Shown: positions 277-43,123 of the stretch, piece by piece | Layout of the letters: every line of letters begins with the position of its first letter | How positions within the stretch are numbered: position 1 is the stretch's first letter | Source: a virus | Lineage: Duplodnaviria > Heunggongvirae > Uroviricota > Caudoviricetes | Length of the DNA stretch: 43,465 nt | Virus record (IMG/VR): IMGVR_UViG_2563366823_000003 | Direction: 5' to 3' (one strand) | The notes under the pieces: model-generated | The model's database searches: none | Told to the model about the DNA's origin: nothing | What the model saw: the letters and a program-made list of their open reading frames with translations, nothing else | Made by a program: the position numbers and the translations under genes

Positions 277-936
277 TTATTGCAATTGCACAAGAGTCAG
301 TTCTCCCCCAAAGACAGCACCGGTATCAATATAATGCAGGTTGCCAATATCCACGCGATGGCGCAAAGGTGTATGACCAAACCAGAAATGATCAGCACCT
401 GCAATTCCCTGCCCTTTTTGGCGTTCACCTAATCGCGAGCGGCTCCACAAGACCTGATGCAAATCGACGTCCTTTTGCCATTCATAGACATCATCTGGAT
501 AATCGGCATGAGCAATAACATGTTTGCCGGTGCGACTGTGTAATTCAAGAATAAAGGGCAAATGCTGACATTTTTCCAGCGCCGTTTTCGCTTGTTTCTG
601 TTGATTATCTGCCAGCGCAATAAACCAGTCGCCGCCATTTATCAACCATAAAGACATCTGCCGGGATGCCAGCGCATCCATCGCCATCTGTTCATGATTG
701 CCTCTTACCGCACGAACCCAATGTTGTTCCAGTAACTGCAGGCAACGTAAACTTTGCGGCCCACGATCGATAACGTCTCCCACTGAGATAAGTAAATCTC
801 GCCACGGATCAAAACGACAATGCCATAATTTGCGGCGCAACTGCTCAAGACAACCGTGTATATCGCCTGAAAGCCAGATATGTCGCCATTGATGACCCGC
901 AATTCTCTGATAAACGGGCGCAGGCTGTTTCATCAA
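277..936 (-). CDS. pphA: serine/threonine protein phosphatase 1 (calcineurin-like metallophosphoesterase)
   Basis: 218-aa product with GDIHG, GDVIDRG and GNHE metallophosphatase motifs; near-identical to E. coli PphA/PrpA as recalled. Confidence 0.9.
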   Translation of the reverse strand: MMKQPAPVYQRIAGHQWRHIWLSGDIHGCLEQLRRKLWHCRFDPWRDLLISVGDVIDRGPQSLRCLQLLEQHWVRAVRGNHEQMAMDALASRQMSLWLINGGDWFIALADNQQKQAKTALEKCQHLPFILELHSRTGKHVIAHADYPDDVYEWQKDVDLHQVLWSRSRLGERQKGQGIAGADHFWFGHTPLRHRVDIGNLHYIDTGAVFGGELTLVQLQ

Positions 937-1067
937 TATTTTCCTCCCGCGCTAAAGATCACATAATCTTAACAAGAATGTTAAAAAACGCTGGACTCAG
1001 ACAGTAGAGTGTGTGTTATGGTTGACTATAAAGTCAGCGAAGGGAATGCTTCTGGCTTTTAACAGAT

Positions 1068-1098
1068 AAAAAGAGACCGAACACGATTCCTGTTTTCG
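1068..1098. repeat. attL: left copy of the att core (3'-terminal segment of sdsR)
   Basis: aaaaagagaccgaacacgattcctgttttcg repeats 42864-42898 with 2 mismatches and one indel; host-type end ggtctcttttt retained on the minus strand. Confidence 0.7.
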
Positions 1099-1397
1099 TC
1101 AACAAACAACAAAATCTTTTAGAATTAATGTGTTAAATAAATTTATGCTCATCTTTTAATCCCTAACACATACCATTACATATTAATACATTCAATTAGT
1201 TACCATTTTTTTCGAGTTTTTTAGAGAAATTTTCGGGAATATTTCAGATCAATCCATGCATACACAAGCAATTCCTGTATTGAATAATTCCGTAGCAATT
1301 ATGTAAAATCACCTCCGGCTGATTTTCATTCAAACTCGCGCTATCGAACGTCCATCAGCCAGCCGTGGCACGTTCTTGCATACGACGTGCTACGGTT

Positions 1398-1527
1398 TCA
1401 TTTATCTCCGACCGGAAACTTCTTATACAAAGTCGATACGCCAACATCATAGATGATCGCCACCTTCTGGCGAGAAACTCCTGATGCAATTAGTCGTCCA
1501 GCCTGCGCCCATTGCTCCGGCGTGAGA
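1398..1527 (-). pseudogene. pin: 3' remnant of a Pin/Gin/Hin-family DNA invertase (C-terminal HTH only)
   Basis: Minus-strand translation LTPEQWAQAGRLIASGVSRQKVAIIYDVGVSTLYKKFPVGDK* matches the recalled C-terminus of E. coli Pin; no N-terminal resolvase domain upstream. Confidence 0.7.
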
Positions 1528-1610
1528 GTAAGACAGTAAACTGTAGAAAAATCTCATTAAACTTAATATAATAATAAGTTACAGAATTATCTTTACTGAA
1601 TAATAGATAT

Positions 1611-27379: not shown

Positions 27380-27535
27380 TTACTCCTCAGGTTCGTAAGC
27401 TGTGAAGACAGCGACCTCCGTCTGGCCGGTTCGGATTCGTACCTCGCAGAGGTCTTTCCTCGTTACCAGTGCCGTCACTATGACGGTTAAACAGATGACG
27501 ATCAGGGCGATTAACATCGCCTTTTGCTGCTTCAT
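27380..27535 (-). CDS. hokD: Hok/Gef-family membrane toxin (type I toxin-antitoxin)
   Basis: 51 aa MKQQKAMLIALIVICLTVIVTALVTRKDLCEVRIRTGQTEVAVFTAYEPEE matches recalled HokD/RelF; hairpin-rich 3' UTR and in-frame upstream extension. Confidence 0.8.
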   Translation of the reverse strand: MKQQKAMLIALIVICLTVIVTALVTRKDLCEVRIRTGQTEVAVFTAYEPEE

Positions 27536-27677
27536 AGCCTGCTTCTCCTTGCCTTTCGGCACGTAAGAGGCTAACCTACATGTGCAAAGCATGAAATTGG
27601 CCTCAGATTAATGTTAAGCGTCTTGCCGGACGCGTAATGTTAACTGGGGCTTTTCTCTATCTGCCTTTGGTGTTCGT

Positions 27678-27717
27678 GCCCGAGGCAGATAGCCTCAAGC
27701 ACCCGCCGTGATTCTAC
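27678..27717. repeat. left copy of a ~40-bp imperfect direct repeat flanking the AT-rich cargo island
   Basis: gcccgaggcagatagcctcaagcacccgccgtgattctac versus gcctgagacagacaacctcaagcacccgcagcaattctac at 29698-29737, ~82% identity. Confidence 0.6.
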
Positions 27718-36171: not shown

Positions 36172-36571
36172 ATTCATTTCCTTACTGGTTGTGTGAGAAC
36201 TCCAGTAAAGATACCACCAAAGCCCGGAGGTGGTGAAATAAAACCGGGCACAACACGAAGGCGCATTTCTGGTATCCATAAAGAGTCGGTCTTGTCTGTT
36301 AAATTTAAATGGTGGGAGTGCGCCTCCGGTTGTAAATAACGACATTGCTTTGTGTAGTCTTTGGCGGCATCAGTTCTACTCCGTGGCTGCCCTGCCGCCC
36401 CTTTTTAAAGTGAATTTTGTGATGCGGTGAATGCGGCTAAGCGCACGCGGAACAGTTAAAAGCATCAGTGTTATGGGTGGATTATCCGGCGTTAATTGTT
36501 AACTGGTTAACGTCACCTGGAGGCACCAGGCACCGCATCGACAAAATTCATTTGTAAAAATGGAGATAATT

Positions 36572-40913: not shown

Positions 40914-41120
40914 ATGACAAAAATTATGAGATATGACGATGTTAAACCATGTCCGTTTTGTGGTTGTCCATCTGTTACGGTGAAAGCAATTTCAGGATAT
41001 TACCGGGCAAAATGCAACGGATGCGAATCCCGAACTGGCTATGGTGGAAGTGAAAAAGAAGCGCTCGAAAGATGGAATAAACGAACCACTGAAAATATTA
41101 ATGGAGGCGTTCATGTATAA
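40914..41120 (+). CDS. ralR: restriction alleviation protein Lar/RalR
   Basis: MTKIMRYDDVKPCPFCGCPSVTVKAISGYYRAKCNGCESRTGYGGSEKEALERWNKRT matches recalled Lar. Confidence 0.7.
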   Translation: MTKIMRYDDVKPCPFCGCPSVTVKAISGYYRAKCNGCESRTGYGGSEKEALERWNKRTTENINGGVHV

Positions 41121-41301
41121 AATTACTGCTACAATTGAAAAGGAAGGTGGCACTCCTACTAACTGGACAAGATATTCAAAATCTAAACTAACGAAATCAG
41201 AATGCGAAAAAATGCTCTCAGGGAAAAAAGAAGCAGGCGTTTCCAGAGAGCAGAAAGTAAAACTGATAAATTTTAATTGCGAGAAACTTCTGTCATCGTG
41301 A
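41113..41301 (+). CDS. small hypothetical protein (62 aa)
   Basis: ATG 41113 overlapping the lar stop; the track start upstream is non-ATG. Confidence 0.4.
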   Translation: MYKITATIEKEGGTPTNWTRYSKSKLTKSECEKMLSGKKEAGVSREQKVKLINFNCEKLLSS

Positions 41302-41407
41302 GTTACATCATATCCAAATTAGAACTTCATAGCTGATTATTAAAAATCAACCACACCCGCCAGTATTCTGTATATTTACTGGCGGTCATATCGTAAGAGG
41401 TATGGCA

Positions 41408-41689
41408 ATGAATCTTGTGACACTCAAAACTTGGGGAAGACTCAGATATCCGGATAACCCACCATCAATATCAACACTGAGACGATGGGCAAGGAATGGA
41501 AACATTTATCCTGCACCTGAACTACACGGGAGGAGTTACAGGGTGGTTCCGGAGGCTTTCTATATCAACCCAAATAAGGTTGATACCGATATAACACACC
41601 ACCAGCCTAATGGGCGACAAGGGAGAGACAGTCCGTTAATGGAGAAGTTAAAACATGCAGCGGAAAAAATACGATCCCAATTTGCCTAG
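41408..41689 (+). CDS. xis: excisionase (Xis-like)
   Basis: Small basic ORF overlapping the integrase start; AAGAGG 8 nt upstream of ATG 41408. Confidence 0.6.
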   Translation: MNLVTLKTWGRLRYPDNPPSISTLRRWARNGNIYPAPELHGRSYRVVPEAFYINPNKVDTDITHHQPNGRQGRDSPLMEKLKHAAEKIRSQFA

Positions 41690-42731
41690 AAACTTAACAT
41701 ATCGAAGGAGAGACAAAGCATATTACTGGCGCAACCCTCTCACGAAAGAAGAATTTACACTAGGTAAAATTTCAAGAAGAGATGCAGTAGCGCAGGCAAT
41801 TGAAGCAAATCATTATATATACAAAAACTACTCTCCTGCTGCCTTAATTGAAAAGCTGAAAGGGTTCGACTCATTTACTATGGCAGACTGGATTGAACGT
41901 TACAAAACGATTCTTATAAGGAGAAAAGTGTCCAGAAATACTTATAAAATTCGGGTAAATCAACTGGAGACAATAAAAGAAAAATTGGGAGGGATTTTAC
42001 TGACAGAAATAACCACTCGCCATATTGCTGAGTTTCTTGATTTGTGGATTGAAGGAGGGAAAAACACGATGGCAGGATCAATGCGTTCTGTGTTATCTGA
42101 TATGTTCCGCGAGGCCATTGTTGAAGGACGTATATCTCAAAATCCAGTAACGCCAACAAGAGCACCGAAAATAGTAGTTACAAGAGAACGACTGAAACTA
42201 AAGACATACAACTGCATCAGGGAGGCAGCAGATCAACTTCCGGCATGGTTCCCATTAGCTATGGATTTAGCCCTTGTAACAGGACAACGTCGCGAAGACA
42301 TAACGAATATGCGGTTCAGTGATATTTATGATGATCGTCTCCACATCAGGCAAATTAAGACAGGAATGATGATTGCTATCCCCCTGTCACTCAGACTTCC
42401 TGTCGCTGGTCTACGGCTTGGTACAGTAGTTGAACGCTGCCGCCTGGTAAGCCGGGGAGATTATCTAATCAGTGCCGGGATTAGAAAAAACAGCCCTGAC
42501 GGCAGCATTCACCCGGATGGCCTGACAAAAAAATTTGTCGCAGCCAGAAAATTAACAGGTATCCAGTTCAGTGAAAACCCACCAACTTTTCACGAGATCA
42601 GAAGTCTGGCTGGACGATTGTACAAAGAAACATGTGGAGAAGAATTTGCTCAGCGTCTACTTGGCCACACATCGGAGAAGACAACAAAAATGTATCTTGA
42701 TGAGAGAGAAAAAACGTACTTACTGCTCTGA
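41655..42731 (+). CDS. int: tyrosine integrase (lambda Int family)
   Basis: 358 aa; collinear with recalled lambda Int ([40 protein letters not shown] catalytic region); GGAGAAG upstream. Confidence 0.9.
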
Positions 42732-42863
42732 TTTTAACGTAAATGGATTGTTAAATGCATTTTGGTTGTGATATAACCAAAAAAGACCGGAATACAGAAA
42801 TTCGAGTAAATTTCGGGGAATTTCGGGGGAGACGTTTGCAACTGATTGATTTTAAATACAATT

Positions 42864-42898
42864 AAAAAAAGACCGAATACGATTCCTGTATTCGGTCC
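42864..42898. repeat. attR: right copy of the att core inside the sdsR terminator stem
   Basis: aaaaaaagaccgaatacgattcctgtattcggtcc matches 1068-1098. Confidence 0.7.
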
Positions 42899-42966
42899 AG
42901 GGAAATGGCTCTTGGGAGAGAGCCGTGCGCTAAAAGTTGGCATTAATGCAGGCTTAGTTGCCTTGC
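42864..42966 (-). ncRNA. sdsR: SdsR (RyeB) small RNA; antisense RyeA/SraC overlaps on the plus strand
   Basis: Minus-strand gcaaggcaactaagcctgcattaatgccaacttttagcgcacggctctctcccaagagccatttccctggaccgaatacaggaatcgtattcggtcttttttt matches recalled SdsR incl. terminator. Confidence 0.8.
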
Positions 42967-43123
42967 TCTTTAAGAATAGATGACGACGCCAGGTTTTCCA
43001 GTTTGCGTGCAAAATGGTCAATAAAAAGCGTGGTGGTCATCAGCTTAAATGTTAAAAACCGCCCGTTCTGGTGAAAGAACTGAGGCGGTTTTTTATTGGA
43101 AATCAAAAGGCTATTTTAGGTAA

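Follow-up and report, generated by a model that had tools for sequence, protein, structure and literature searches.

In phage lambda, the P′ arm of attP lies beside int and carries the sites C′-H′-P′1-P′2-P′3. Attachment sites of the lambda type combine inverted core-type sites around an overlap of ∼7 bp, identical in attP and attB, with several copies of one short motif that flank the core on either side at conserved distances, with an IHF site between these arm-type sites and the core, and with an adjacent tyrosine integrase that has an N-terminal arm-type DNA-binding domain. In P22 and in elements of the P4 type, which use the 3′ ends of tRNA or tmRNA genes, the phage supplies a copy of the 3′ terminus of the gene, so that the RNA gene stays intact.

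The Salmonella phage PhiW104 reportedly integrates in ryeB/sdsR, as Balbontin and colleagues are said to have described in 2008. According to two papers that cite this work, its attachment site is the last ∼23 bp of ryeB, internal to ryeA (PMC7380047, PMC3333887). The same papers make no mention of arm-type sites, an IHF site or a core-like repeat of PhiW104.

Here we describe a lambdoid prophage of ∼41.8 kb whose insertion site is the 3′ end of sdsR, a small-RNA gene. It was analysed within a stretch of 43,465 nt, hereafter the window. Our interest is in the 132 bp from the int stop codon to the attR phage/host junction (42732–42863), for which an original prediction had proposed a second att-core-like half-site, a tandem repeat and a role of both as integrase arm-type sites.

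Results

The prophage is inserted in the SdsR terminator

The features that define the locus are as follows.

277–936, minus strand: pphA
1068–1090: attL copy of the 23-mer core, with 2 mismatches
1075–1101, plus strand: attL core, with B GACCGAACAC (1075–1084), overlap GATTCCT (1085–1091) and C′ GTTTTCGTCA (1092–1101)
42864–42886: attR copy of the 23-mer core, exact
42864–42897, plus strand: attR core, with A7 (42864–42870), C half-site GACCGAATAC (42871–42880), overlap candidate GATTCCT (42881–42887) and B′ half-site GTATTCGGTC (42888–42897)
42864–42963, minus strand: sdsR (ryeB) sRNA gene (Rfam RF00111, 118 bits)
42860–43004, plus strand: conserved body of ryeA/sraC (Rfam RF00101, 180 bits)
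beyond sdsR and ryeA/sraC: yebY

The 23-mer core had been correctly recognized in the original prediction, and the attL and attR copies are its sole matches in the window at up to 3 mismatches. A tRNA or tmRNA gene was discarded as the insertion target, the window being devoid of either; the target is sdsR/ryeA. No Rfam family was found inside 42732–42859.

The attR core coincides with the SdsR terminator hairpin, of which GATTCCT forms the 7-nt loop. In a repeat search, its stem was returned as a 10-bp perfect inverted repeat (GACCGAATAC/GTATTCGGTC) with a 7-nt spacer; the two arms of the terminator stem are natural inverted core-type sites. To the left of the crossover block, the last ∼15 nt of sdsR (42864–42878) come from the phage.

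The crossover was located by comparison with an empty and a phage-borne site. The K-12 empty site (attB) reads ...ATAAAAAGAGACCGAACACGATTCCTGTATTCGGTCC..., and attP of PP818812, a sequenced phage genome record whose Int is 98% identical, reads ...AAAAAAAGACCGAATACGATTCCTGTTTTCGTCAAC...; each of the two junctions in the window, attL and attR, is a hybrid of these sequences, the one reciprocal to the other. ACGATTCCTGT is common to attP, attB, attL and attR and is bounded by mismatches on both sides, which places strand exchange inside this block (42879–42889 and 1083–1093). From this, we infer GATTCCT as the exact 7-bp overlap. The core thus resembles that of a lambda-type site, with inverted core-type sites around an overlap of ∼7 bp that is identical in attP and attB.

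Several further observations concern the locus and the element. PP818812.1 (L001) is named 'Actinobacillus phage vB_Apl-pPE4'; its int and attP are 98% identical to those of the window and it targets the enterobacterial sdsR core, and Actinobacillus as its stated host is doubtful. Lysogeny exchanges the 3′ end of SdsR (42864–42880 versus L003:1105–1121), from ...CGUGUUCGGUCUCUUUUU to ...CGUAUUCGGUCUUUUUUU, whereby a G·U pair becomes A-U and the U run is lengthened. It also separates sdsR by 41.8 kb from pphA, which in K-12 is partly expressed via sdsR read-through (PMC6610125). L081 has a (TTTCCG)x8 microsatellite where the C′ half-site would be, directly right of the overlap. Within the prophage, Rfam matches to sok, DicF and RalA (regions 27530–27704, 36349–36400 and 41119–41297) and, by reading of translations, recE/recT-like ORFs look like Rac/Qin-like modules, in an element that sits at sdsR and not at the Rac site.

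The arm itself is carried by 228 complete E. coli genomes, i.e. ∼4% of those available as complete. A scan of genome contigs gave at least two close loci, and one genome labelled Shigella flexneri carries the same arm.

A lambda-family integrase gene adjoins the interval

Two recombination genes lie to the left of the interval.

41402–41689, plus strand: xis, excisionase of 95 aa (Pfam PF07825 Exc, E = 9.8e-14), overlapping the int start
41655–42731, plus strand: int, lambda-family tyrosine integrase of 358 aa (PF09003, PF22022, PF00589)

The integrase shares 38.6% identity with lambda Int, and its residues 8–353 align with the lambda Int structures 5J0N and 1Z1B (E = 3e-72). PF09003 is recognized with 28 bits (cut-off 22), residues 8–59 align to lambda Int 10–59 in 5J0N/1Z1B, and the N-domain structure 1KJK is matched with E = 5e-4. 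As judged by these matches, the tyrosine integrase next to the interval has an N-terminal arm-type DNA-binding domain.

Phased repeats occur in both arms at fixed distances from the core

The candidate protein sites of the two phage arms are listed here in the order in which they are discussed.

42798–42807, plus strand: candidate arm-type site P′3, AAATTCGAGT, with TTCGAG at 42801
42808–42818, plus strand: candidate arm-type site P′2, AAATTTCGGGG, from repetition and conservation
42819–42828, plus strand: candidate arm-type site P′1, AATTTCGGGG, from repetition and conservation
1207–1248, plus strand: P-arm repeat array of TTCGAG (1211), TTAGAG (1221), TTCGGG (1232) and TTCAGA (1243), spaced by 10–11 bp and oriented like the P′ units
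42839–42851, minus strand: candidate IHF site (H′-like), AATCAATCAGTTG, an exact match to the consensus WATCAANNNNTTR

The tandem repeat TTTCGGGGAATTTCGGGGGA lies at 42811–42830, as originally described; read in register, it consists of two copies of AATTTCGGGG at 42809–42818 and 42819–42828. This is the sole perfect 10-mer tandem duplication (span 42809–42828) in the 43.5-kb window, where 0.025 are expected by chance on average, and such a duplication was present in 2% of 200 dinucleotide shuffles. Both units are real, but a third, degenerate unit that precedes them (AAATTCGAGT, 42798–42807) had been missed; in Salmonella-type relatives, it is replaced by a perfect third copy, AAATTCGAGG. The TTCGRG cores of the three units start at 42801, 42812 and 42822, and are thus phased at 11 and 10 bp. 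Five of the 28 TTCGRG copies in the window lie within ∼700 bp of the att cores, all of them on the plus strand. The original prediction had proposed a search of the attL-proximal phage arm for matching repeats, and there the motif indeed recurs at 1211–1248, in the same orientation and with the same 10–11 bp spacing.

To the right of the P-arm repeats, ∼185 bp into the phage, we noted the 11-mer ATTCCTGTATT (1271–1281), which equals the overlap plus the start of B′. An attP module inside a split older core, as this 11-mer suggested, was rejected, for the 11-mer is absent even from pPE4. Beside it lies a truncated DNA invertase gene of the Pin/Gin type (1300–1530, minus strand; C-terminal 44 aa, PF02796 HTH_7, E = 4.6e-12).

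The distribution of the motif was determined in >100 attL/attP junctions from many lineages, obtained by an IMG/VR scan with the phage-type core. In 48 non-redundant P arms, 100 motif matches fell at +130 to +159 and 15 in the remaining 370 of 400 nt, and in 36 non-redundant left arms, 30 matches fell at −70 to −41 and 7 elsewhere; here, non-redundancy means an 8-mer Jaccard index < 0.25, the motif (TTCGnG/TTCGG) was defined after the sequences were seen, and the elements are related by descent, the counts not being independent trials. All matches at +130 to +159 of the P arms were on the plus strand, with none on the other strand there. As in lambda-type sites, one short motif is hence repeated in both arms, outside the core and at conserved distances.

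Conservation among relatives followed the same lines. Among 47 close variants (distinct IMG/VR sequences), 4 of the 31 columns of the repeats are variable, mostly through changes at the R position, compared with 8 of 10 in the adjoining 10-nt gap. Relatives with 75% Int identity and those of the Salmonella type have three-unit arrays as TTCGAGG, TTCGGAA or TTCGGAC, with TTCGAGG in relatives of 75% Int identity. The 3′ half of the motif is variable (GGGG, GAGG, GGAC or GGAA) and heterogeneous even within the arms of one phage. Conservation in related attP regions, whose absence, together with a lack of integrase binding, was to refute the original prediction, extends from the close variants through the 75% relatives to dozens of diverged elements with the motif at fixed core distances on both sides, and at the level of sequence it supports the arm-type reading of the repeats well.

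Some relatives have two P′ units instead of three, which counts against this reading. The P′ arms concerned are of the Salmonella type (L149, L154, L119, L179 and L099), each with a clean deletion of one unit. At 42829, the window has five Gs at the end of P′1 where most relatives have four, and this 1-bp indel shifts the P′1–IHF spacing. The units are near-palindromic (GAAATTTC), and the arm motif has TTCGG in common with the core half-site GTATTCGGTC, so that the assignment of Int domains to sites is less clear than in lambda.

The motif was also compared with the type of integrase. A second Int type with a different C-terminus (ending in ...YVMV) contains PF09003 and uses the same arm motif; it is 63% identical to the window Int in the N-domain and 50% in the remainder. 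In contrast, one Int type without PF09003 was checked and had no TTCG repeats in its arm. This arrangement was seen in L096, L103, L168 and L185, where the left of the core is occupied by an Int of the PF24624 (Int_N) type, without PF09003, and by an IHF-like TAACTnATTGATTT without TTCG repeats. On the right side, these loci have a TTCG-type P arm, and they are probably junctions between tandem prophages at the sdsR hot spot.

Could the tandem repeats be bound by the excisionase, or by another accessory protein such as Fis, instead of the integrase N-domain? The direct repeats to which Xis of lambda binds are arranged head to tail, the prophage has a xis gene of the lambda type, and some of the four phased units of the P arm, two of them degenerate (1221 and 1243), could be Xis sites. 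However, the Xis sites of lambda are confined to the P arm, whereas each arm has a triplet here, spaced and offset like lambda P′1–3. Moreover, the motif accompanies both checked PF09003 Int types despite their differing C-termini, and does not accompany the type lacking PF09003. We consider recognition by Xis or Fis in place of Int decidedly improbable.

An IHF-like site completes an arrangement like the lambda P′ arm

The consensus WATCAANNNNTTR has a single exact match in the window, at 42839–42851, with 2.3 expected per window by chance. Among the 47 close variants, this 13-mer varies in five columns, every one of them a degenerate Y/NNNN position, and the TAA...TGA frame is kept across subfamilies. 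By this match, the candidate IHF site has the same place as in lambda-type arms, with the core on one side and the arm-type sites on the other.

The distances were then set against those of lambda. Counted from the overlap centre (42884), the offsets are −39 for the IHF candidate, and −60.5, −71 and −81.5 for P′1, P′2 and P′3. For the sites that we take, from the established literature, to be lambda H′ and P′1–P′3, the corresponding offsets from the overlap centre (position 234 of L199) are +38, +57, +67.5 and +78. The WATCAA end of the IHF sequence points toward the core both here and in lambda. Judged by these offsets, the geometry of 42732–42863 is that of the lambda P′ arm in mirror image.

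Taken together, the 132-bp interval is very probably the int-proximal, P′-type arm of a lambda-family attP that is kept in attR of the sdsR prophage, with the repeats as predicted Int sites and the IHF candidate between these and the core. Building on the sequence anatomy, its conservation, the geometry and the protein family, we infer binding and mechanism as follows. The adjacent integrase would contact the three helically phased TTCGRG sites with its N-terminal arm-binding domain, and IHF at 42839–42851 would bend the arm, allowing arm-anchored Int protomers to reach the core. Their target there would be C (42871–42880), overlap (42881–42887) and B′ (42888–42897), i.e. the SdsR terminator hairpin. 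The matching sites of the other arm (1211–1248) would complete the intasome, and Xis would direct excision.

A core-like string lies beyond the last arm-type site

The outer edge of the P′ array carries a further element.

42779–42804, plus strand: core-like string AAAAAAGACCGGAATACAGAAATTCG, composed of A6-GACCGGAATAC-AGAAATTCG, one copy of a 25-nt direct repeat

This string, described originally as a second att-core-like half-site, is present, though 2 nt to the right of the position given for it (42777–42802). Its resemblance to the core is genuine. The 11-mer AAAAAAGACCG occurs exactly twice in the window, at 42779 and 42865, within a 25-nt imperfect direct repeat; 42771–42795 and 42856–42880 are 72% identical without gaps in the repeat search, and match at ∼21 of 25 positions when aligned by hand with one gap per copy. 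In addition, and unnoticed in the original prediction, the right part of the string, GAATACAGAAAT (42790–42801), is 92% complementary to ATTCCTGTATTC (42882–42893), which covers overlap and B′. The string therefore joins two parts of the core, 'A-run + stem' read directly and 'stem + loop' read inverted. The proposal of arm-type sites in the stretch from the int stop to attR is well supported at the sequence level for the tandem repeats, by their presence in both arms, conservation, fixed distances, a PF09003 integrase and lambda-like geometry, but not for the core-like string, which by its sequence is neither an arm-type site nor a second site of crossover.

A function as second att core or secondary crossover site, for the phage's own or another integrase, is hardly credible. 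The A-run and GACCG(G)AATAC are common to the string and the true core; at the overlap position, however, the string reads AGAAATT and not GATTCCT, and it is a single half-site that has no inverted partner 7 bp away. Nor did we find a prophage/host junction at this position in the IMG/VR loci or among the matches listed for the 228 genomes, and the one deletion variant described below joins left of the extra G, outside any overlap. At the level of sequence, a second crossover site is thus refuted.

The string is conserved among relatives. At 75% Int identity, it is kept as GACCGAATACGG or GACCGGATACGG, and the homologous segment of other lineages reads AGACAGGATATGG, ACCGAATAT and similar. The mean local score for likeness to the C half-site in 17 phage-type arms is 7.2, compared with 4.1 ± 0.9 in controls, and the segment is core-like in most of these arms. 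Flanks with at least two TTCG repeats (n = 8) score 8.6, while 17 decayed flanks score 4.8 (background 4.1). Conservation where the arm repeats are intact, and not elsewhere, favours an integrase-related role. Likewise, the CCG(G)AA of the string is the reverse complement of the arm motif TTCGG, which itself recurs in GTATTCGGTC, and this favours an additional contact for Int. Tentatively, we regard the string as such a contact, placed where the P′ array ends on its outer side; it would be a core-type or an inverted TTCGG-type site. Caution is advised by the indel variants among relatives (GACCGGAATAC, GACCGAATAC and GACCGGATAC), a tolerance that is unusual for a precise protein site.

In second place, and somewhat unlikely in our view, the string may be a non-functional relic, left over from an ancient duplication or a previous att junction at this insertion hot spot, and may persist merely on account of its youth. 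It belongs to a 25-bp direct repeat shared with the true core, it tolerates point changes as well as indels, and the sdsR/ryeA locus has repeatedly received foreign DNA (PMC3333887, PMC7380047). A loss of 86 bp between the two repeats in one relative, joined left of the extra G, is likewise what homology-driven deletion predicts. Yet the string is kept at 75% Int identity, where non-coding identity is ∼70–80%, it is retained in the 228 complete E. coli genomes with the arm (among the matches listed), and, as scored above, most phage-type arms are core-like in this segment while flanks without arm repeats drop to background.

The deletion just mentioned was found in L007 (IMGVR_UViG_2728369554_000022). 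Its junction, CCAAAAAAGACCG followed by AATACGATTCC, corresponds to the exact loss of 86 bp between the two AAAAAAGACCG repeats and takes all P′ sites and the IHF site, the adjoining int being 100% identical. The 6-A run is retained and the extra G absent, which puts the join inside AAAAAAGACCG; this pattern fits homology-driven deletion rather than catalysis by Int. No deletion of this type was present in the 228 complete E. coli genomes with the arm, for which the matches listed are two-piece and, with ∼206 bp, represent the intact arm. As a singleton that does not recur in these genomes, it is a rare event or an assembly artefact.

The arm contains a promoter-like element, probably for RyeA/SraC

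Upstream of the core-like string, the interval has a sequence of the sigma-70 extended −10 type that reads toward the core.

42748–42777, plus strand: extended −10 promoter-like element, with TTGTTA (42748–42753), an 18-nt spacer, TG (42769–42770), a, and TATAAC (42772–42777)

The element has a TGn and hexamer with a −35-like sequence 18 nt upstream, is conserved, and has a mapped promoter as its homologue. The 47 close variants differ in the spacer but hardly at all in the hexamers, and TG.TATAA is invariant across diverged subfamilies. TGnTAT(GGT/AAC) was found at −101 to −61 from the core in 25 of 36 non-redundant left flanks, comprising phage arms and prophage-free relics, and gave no match in the other 270 nt of these 36 flanks. 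The positional homologue in K-12 is TGtTATGGT at −61, which has been proven to be the −10 of ryeA by a mutation that puts CTCGAG in its place and abolishes RyeA (PMC6610125, primers PM_RyeAF/R). In Salmonella and Shigella, the −10 is ∼35 bp further upstream and SraC is ∼35 nt longer (Froehlich et al., PMC3333887), which fits the position at −96 to −101 in phage-type arms. Thus, TGaTATAAC probably drives a lysogen-type RyeA/SraC through the arm.

Transcription would start at ∼42783–42785, close to where the core-like string begins, and with this predicted +1 the candidate Int and IHF sites would come to lie within the RyeA leader, at ∼+13 to +70. A simple promoter scan had missed TGaTATAAC because it requires T at the last −10 position. 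The scan reported TTTGCA-16-TACAAT (42835–42862) instead, which we ranked below TGaTATAAC: both its hexamers vary in close relatives, its −10 is absent from this place in Salmonella-type arms, and a start from it would give a RyeA shorter than that of K-12, and not a longer one. A terminator scan of 42600–43100 returned the SdsR terminator and no other intrinsic terminator. A terminator made of the core-like string and the repeats was rejected; the hairpins from the palindromic units are AU-rich, as is the mismatched minus-strand hairpin before UCUUUUUU.

These observations bear on an alternative for the whole interval, namely that it acts mainly at the level of transcription or RNA. The phage would then supply a RyeA/SraC promoter and leader, repeats and core-like string would shape a 5′ hairpin or a pairing within the RNA with its anti-SdsR region, and the repeats would not be sites for recombination proteins. 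Besides the conserved extended −10 (42769–42777) at the place of the K-12 promoter and the longer SraC, the alternative can draw on the altered 5′ portion of RyeA upon PhiW104 lysogeny (PMC7380047, citing Balbontin 2008), on a plus-strand CCGGAAU...AUUUCGG hairpin (z = −2.0) and on the complementarity of GAATACAGAAAT to the core. But this z-score is weak, and a hairpin arises automatically from palindromic units. Furthermore, the TTCGnG triplet array is present in the other arm too, which is outside RyeA, at a fixed distance in 48 lineages. There are also flanks, that of uninfected K-12 included, which keep the −10 element with fewer than two TTCG repeats, an indication that the repeats track the phage arm and not the RyeA promoter; these flanks have lost the core-like element as well. 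Since the alternative is compatible with arm-type sites, its promoter part is probably true and its 'instead of' part is not, and as a replacement for the arm-site reading we consider it improbable. An RNA-level role of the repeats may nevertheless exist, as they are near-palindromic and inside a probably transcribed leader.

The K-12 counterpart of this region has features of its own. The pphA–ryeA spacer (L003:1000–1066; window 1000–1066) resembles the 3′ end of an integrase gene, and the ryeA promoter region aligns ungapped over 64 nt with int-3′-end-type sequence of L100 (z = 11.9 versus shuffles). With one frameshift, it translates as H..LT..K / LD...VMV, where intact integrases end in ...GHKNLTMTKKYLDARGAEYVMV, and the codons Y-V-M-V fall on the proven −10, TGtTATGGT. 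The region around the native ryeA promoter of K-12 hence looks like a fossil of an integrase gene 3′ end. In the lysogen, this native promoter remains at attL (∼1045–1066) and is now aimed into the phage P arm.

Discussion

The architecture described here is textbook lambda-type, at an attachment site that was already known. Our analysis adds a site map, with three P′ sites, an IHF site, the core and a P-arm array as candidates, for a widespread family of enterobacterial prophages, and many further lineages use the same core at sdsR/ryeA. A conserved core-like half-site past the last arm site could also inform the assembly of heterobivalent integrase complexes; we know of no described counterpart in lambda.

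A second theme is the link between phage arm and antisense RNA. It is conceivable, and we put it forward as a working idea, that the P′ arm doubles in lysogens as promoter (TGaTATAAC, 42769–42777) and 5′ leader of RyeA/SraC, that the 'native' ryeA promoters of K-12 and other enterobacteria are fossils of int 3′ ends and P′ arms, and that occupancy by Int and IHF, together with the core-like site at +1, could gate SdsR/RyeA. If true, phage-derived DNA would be the template for the RNA to which the role of SdsR antitoxin has been ascribed. An arm that carries the RyeA/SraC promoter and 5′ end would account for the size and promoter position of SraC differing between species, as has been published, and for K-12 our data suggest descent of the ryeA promoter from the 3′ end of an integrase gene.

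Among described systems, the lambda P′ arm is most similar. It, too, is the int-proximal arm, and the likeness extends to three tandem, helically phased arm-type units, to a consensus IHF site between units and core in the same relative orientation, and to offsets from the overlap centre that agree within ∼4 bp. The integrase is homologous over its full length, arm-binding domain included, and xis lies upstream of int. The differences are these: the arm motif is TTCGRG here and of the CAGTCACTAT type in lambda; an sRNA gene provides the core here, through its terminator hairpin, but lambda has an intergenic core; and, unlike in lambda, TTCGG is found in both the arm motif and the core half-site, a further core-like repeat follows P′3, and the arm also has a promoter-like element reading toward the core.

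With P22 and P4-type elements, the prophage has in common that it brings a copy of the gene 3′ terminus, leaving the RNA gene intact, and that a hairpin stem provides the inverted core-type sites. In contrast to their tRNA/tmRNA targets, however, the target here is a bidirectional sRNA locus, so that insertion affects the antisense RNA as well, whose promoter and 5′ end are replaced. Among closer relatives, the window element represents an E. coli lineage with 75% Int identity to L064–L067; its P′-arm/attR stretch has 80% DNA identity to the Salmonella phage ZC-S1_prp (L002), and this P′ arm layout is common to the Salmonella-type relatives (L002 and others). PhiW104 reportedly uses the same attachment site, and its lysogeny likewise replaces the 5′ portion of ryeA.
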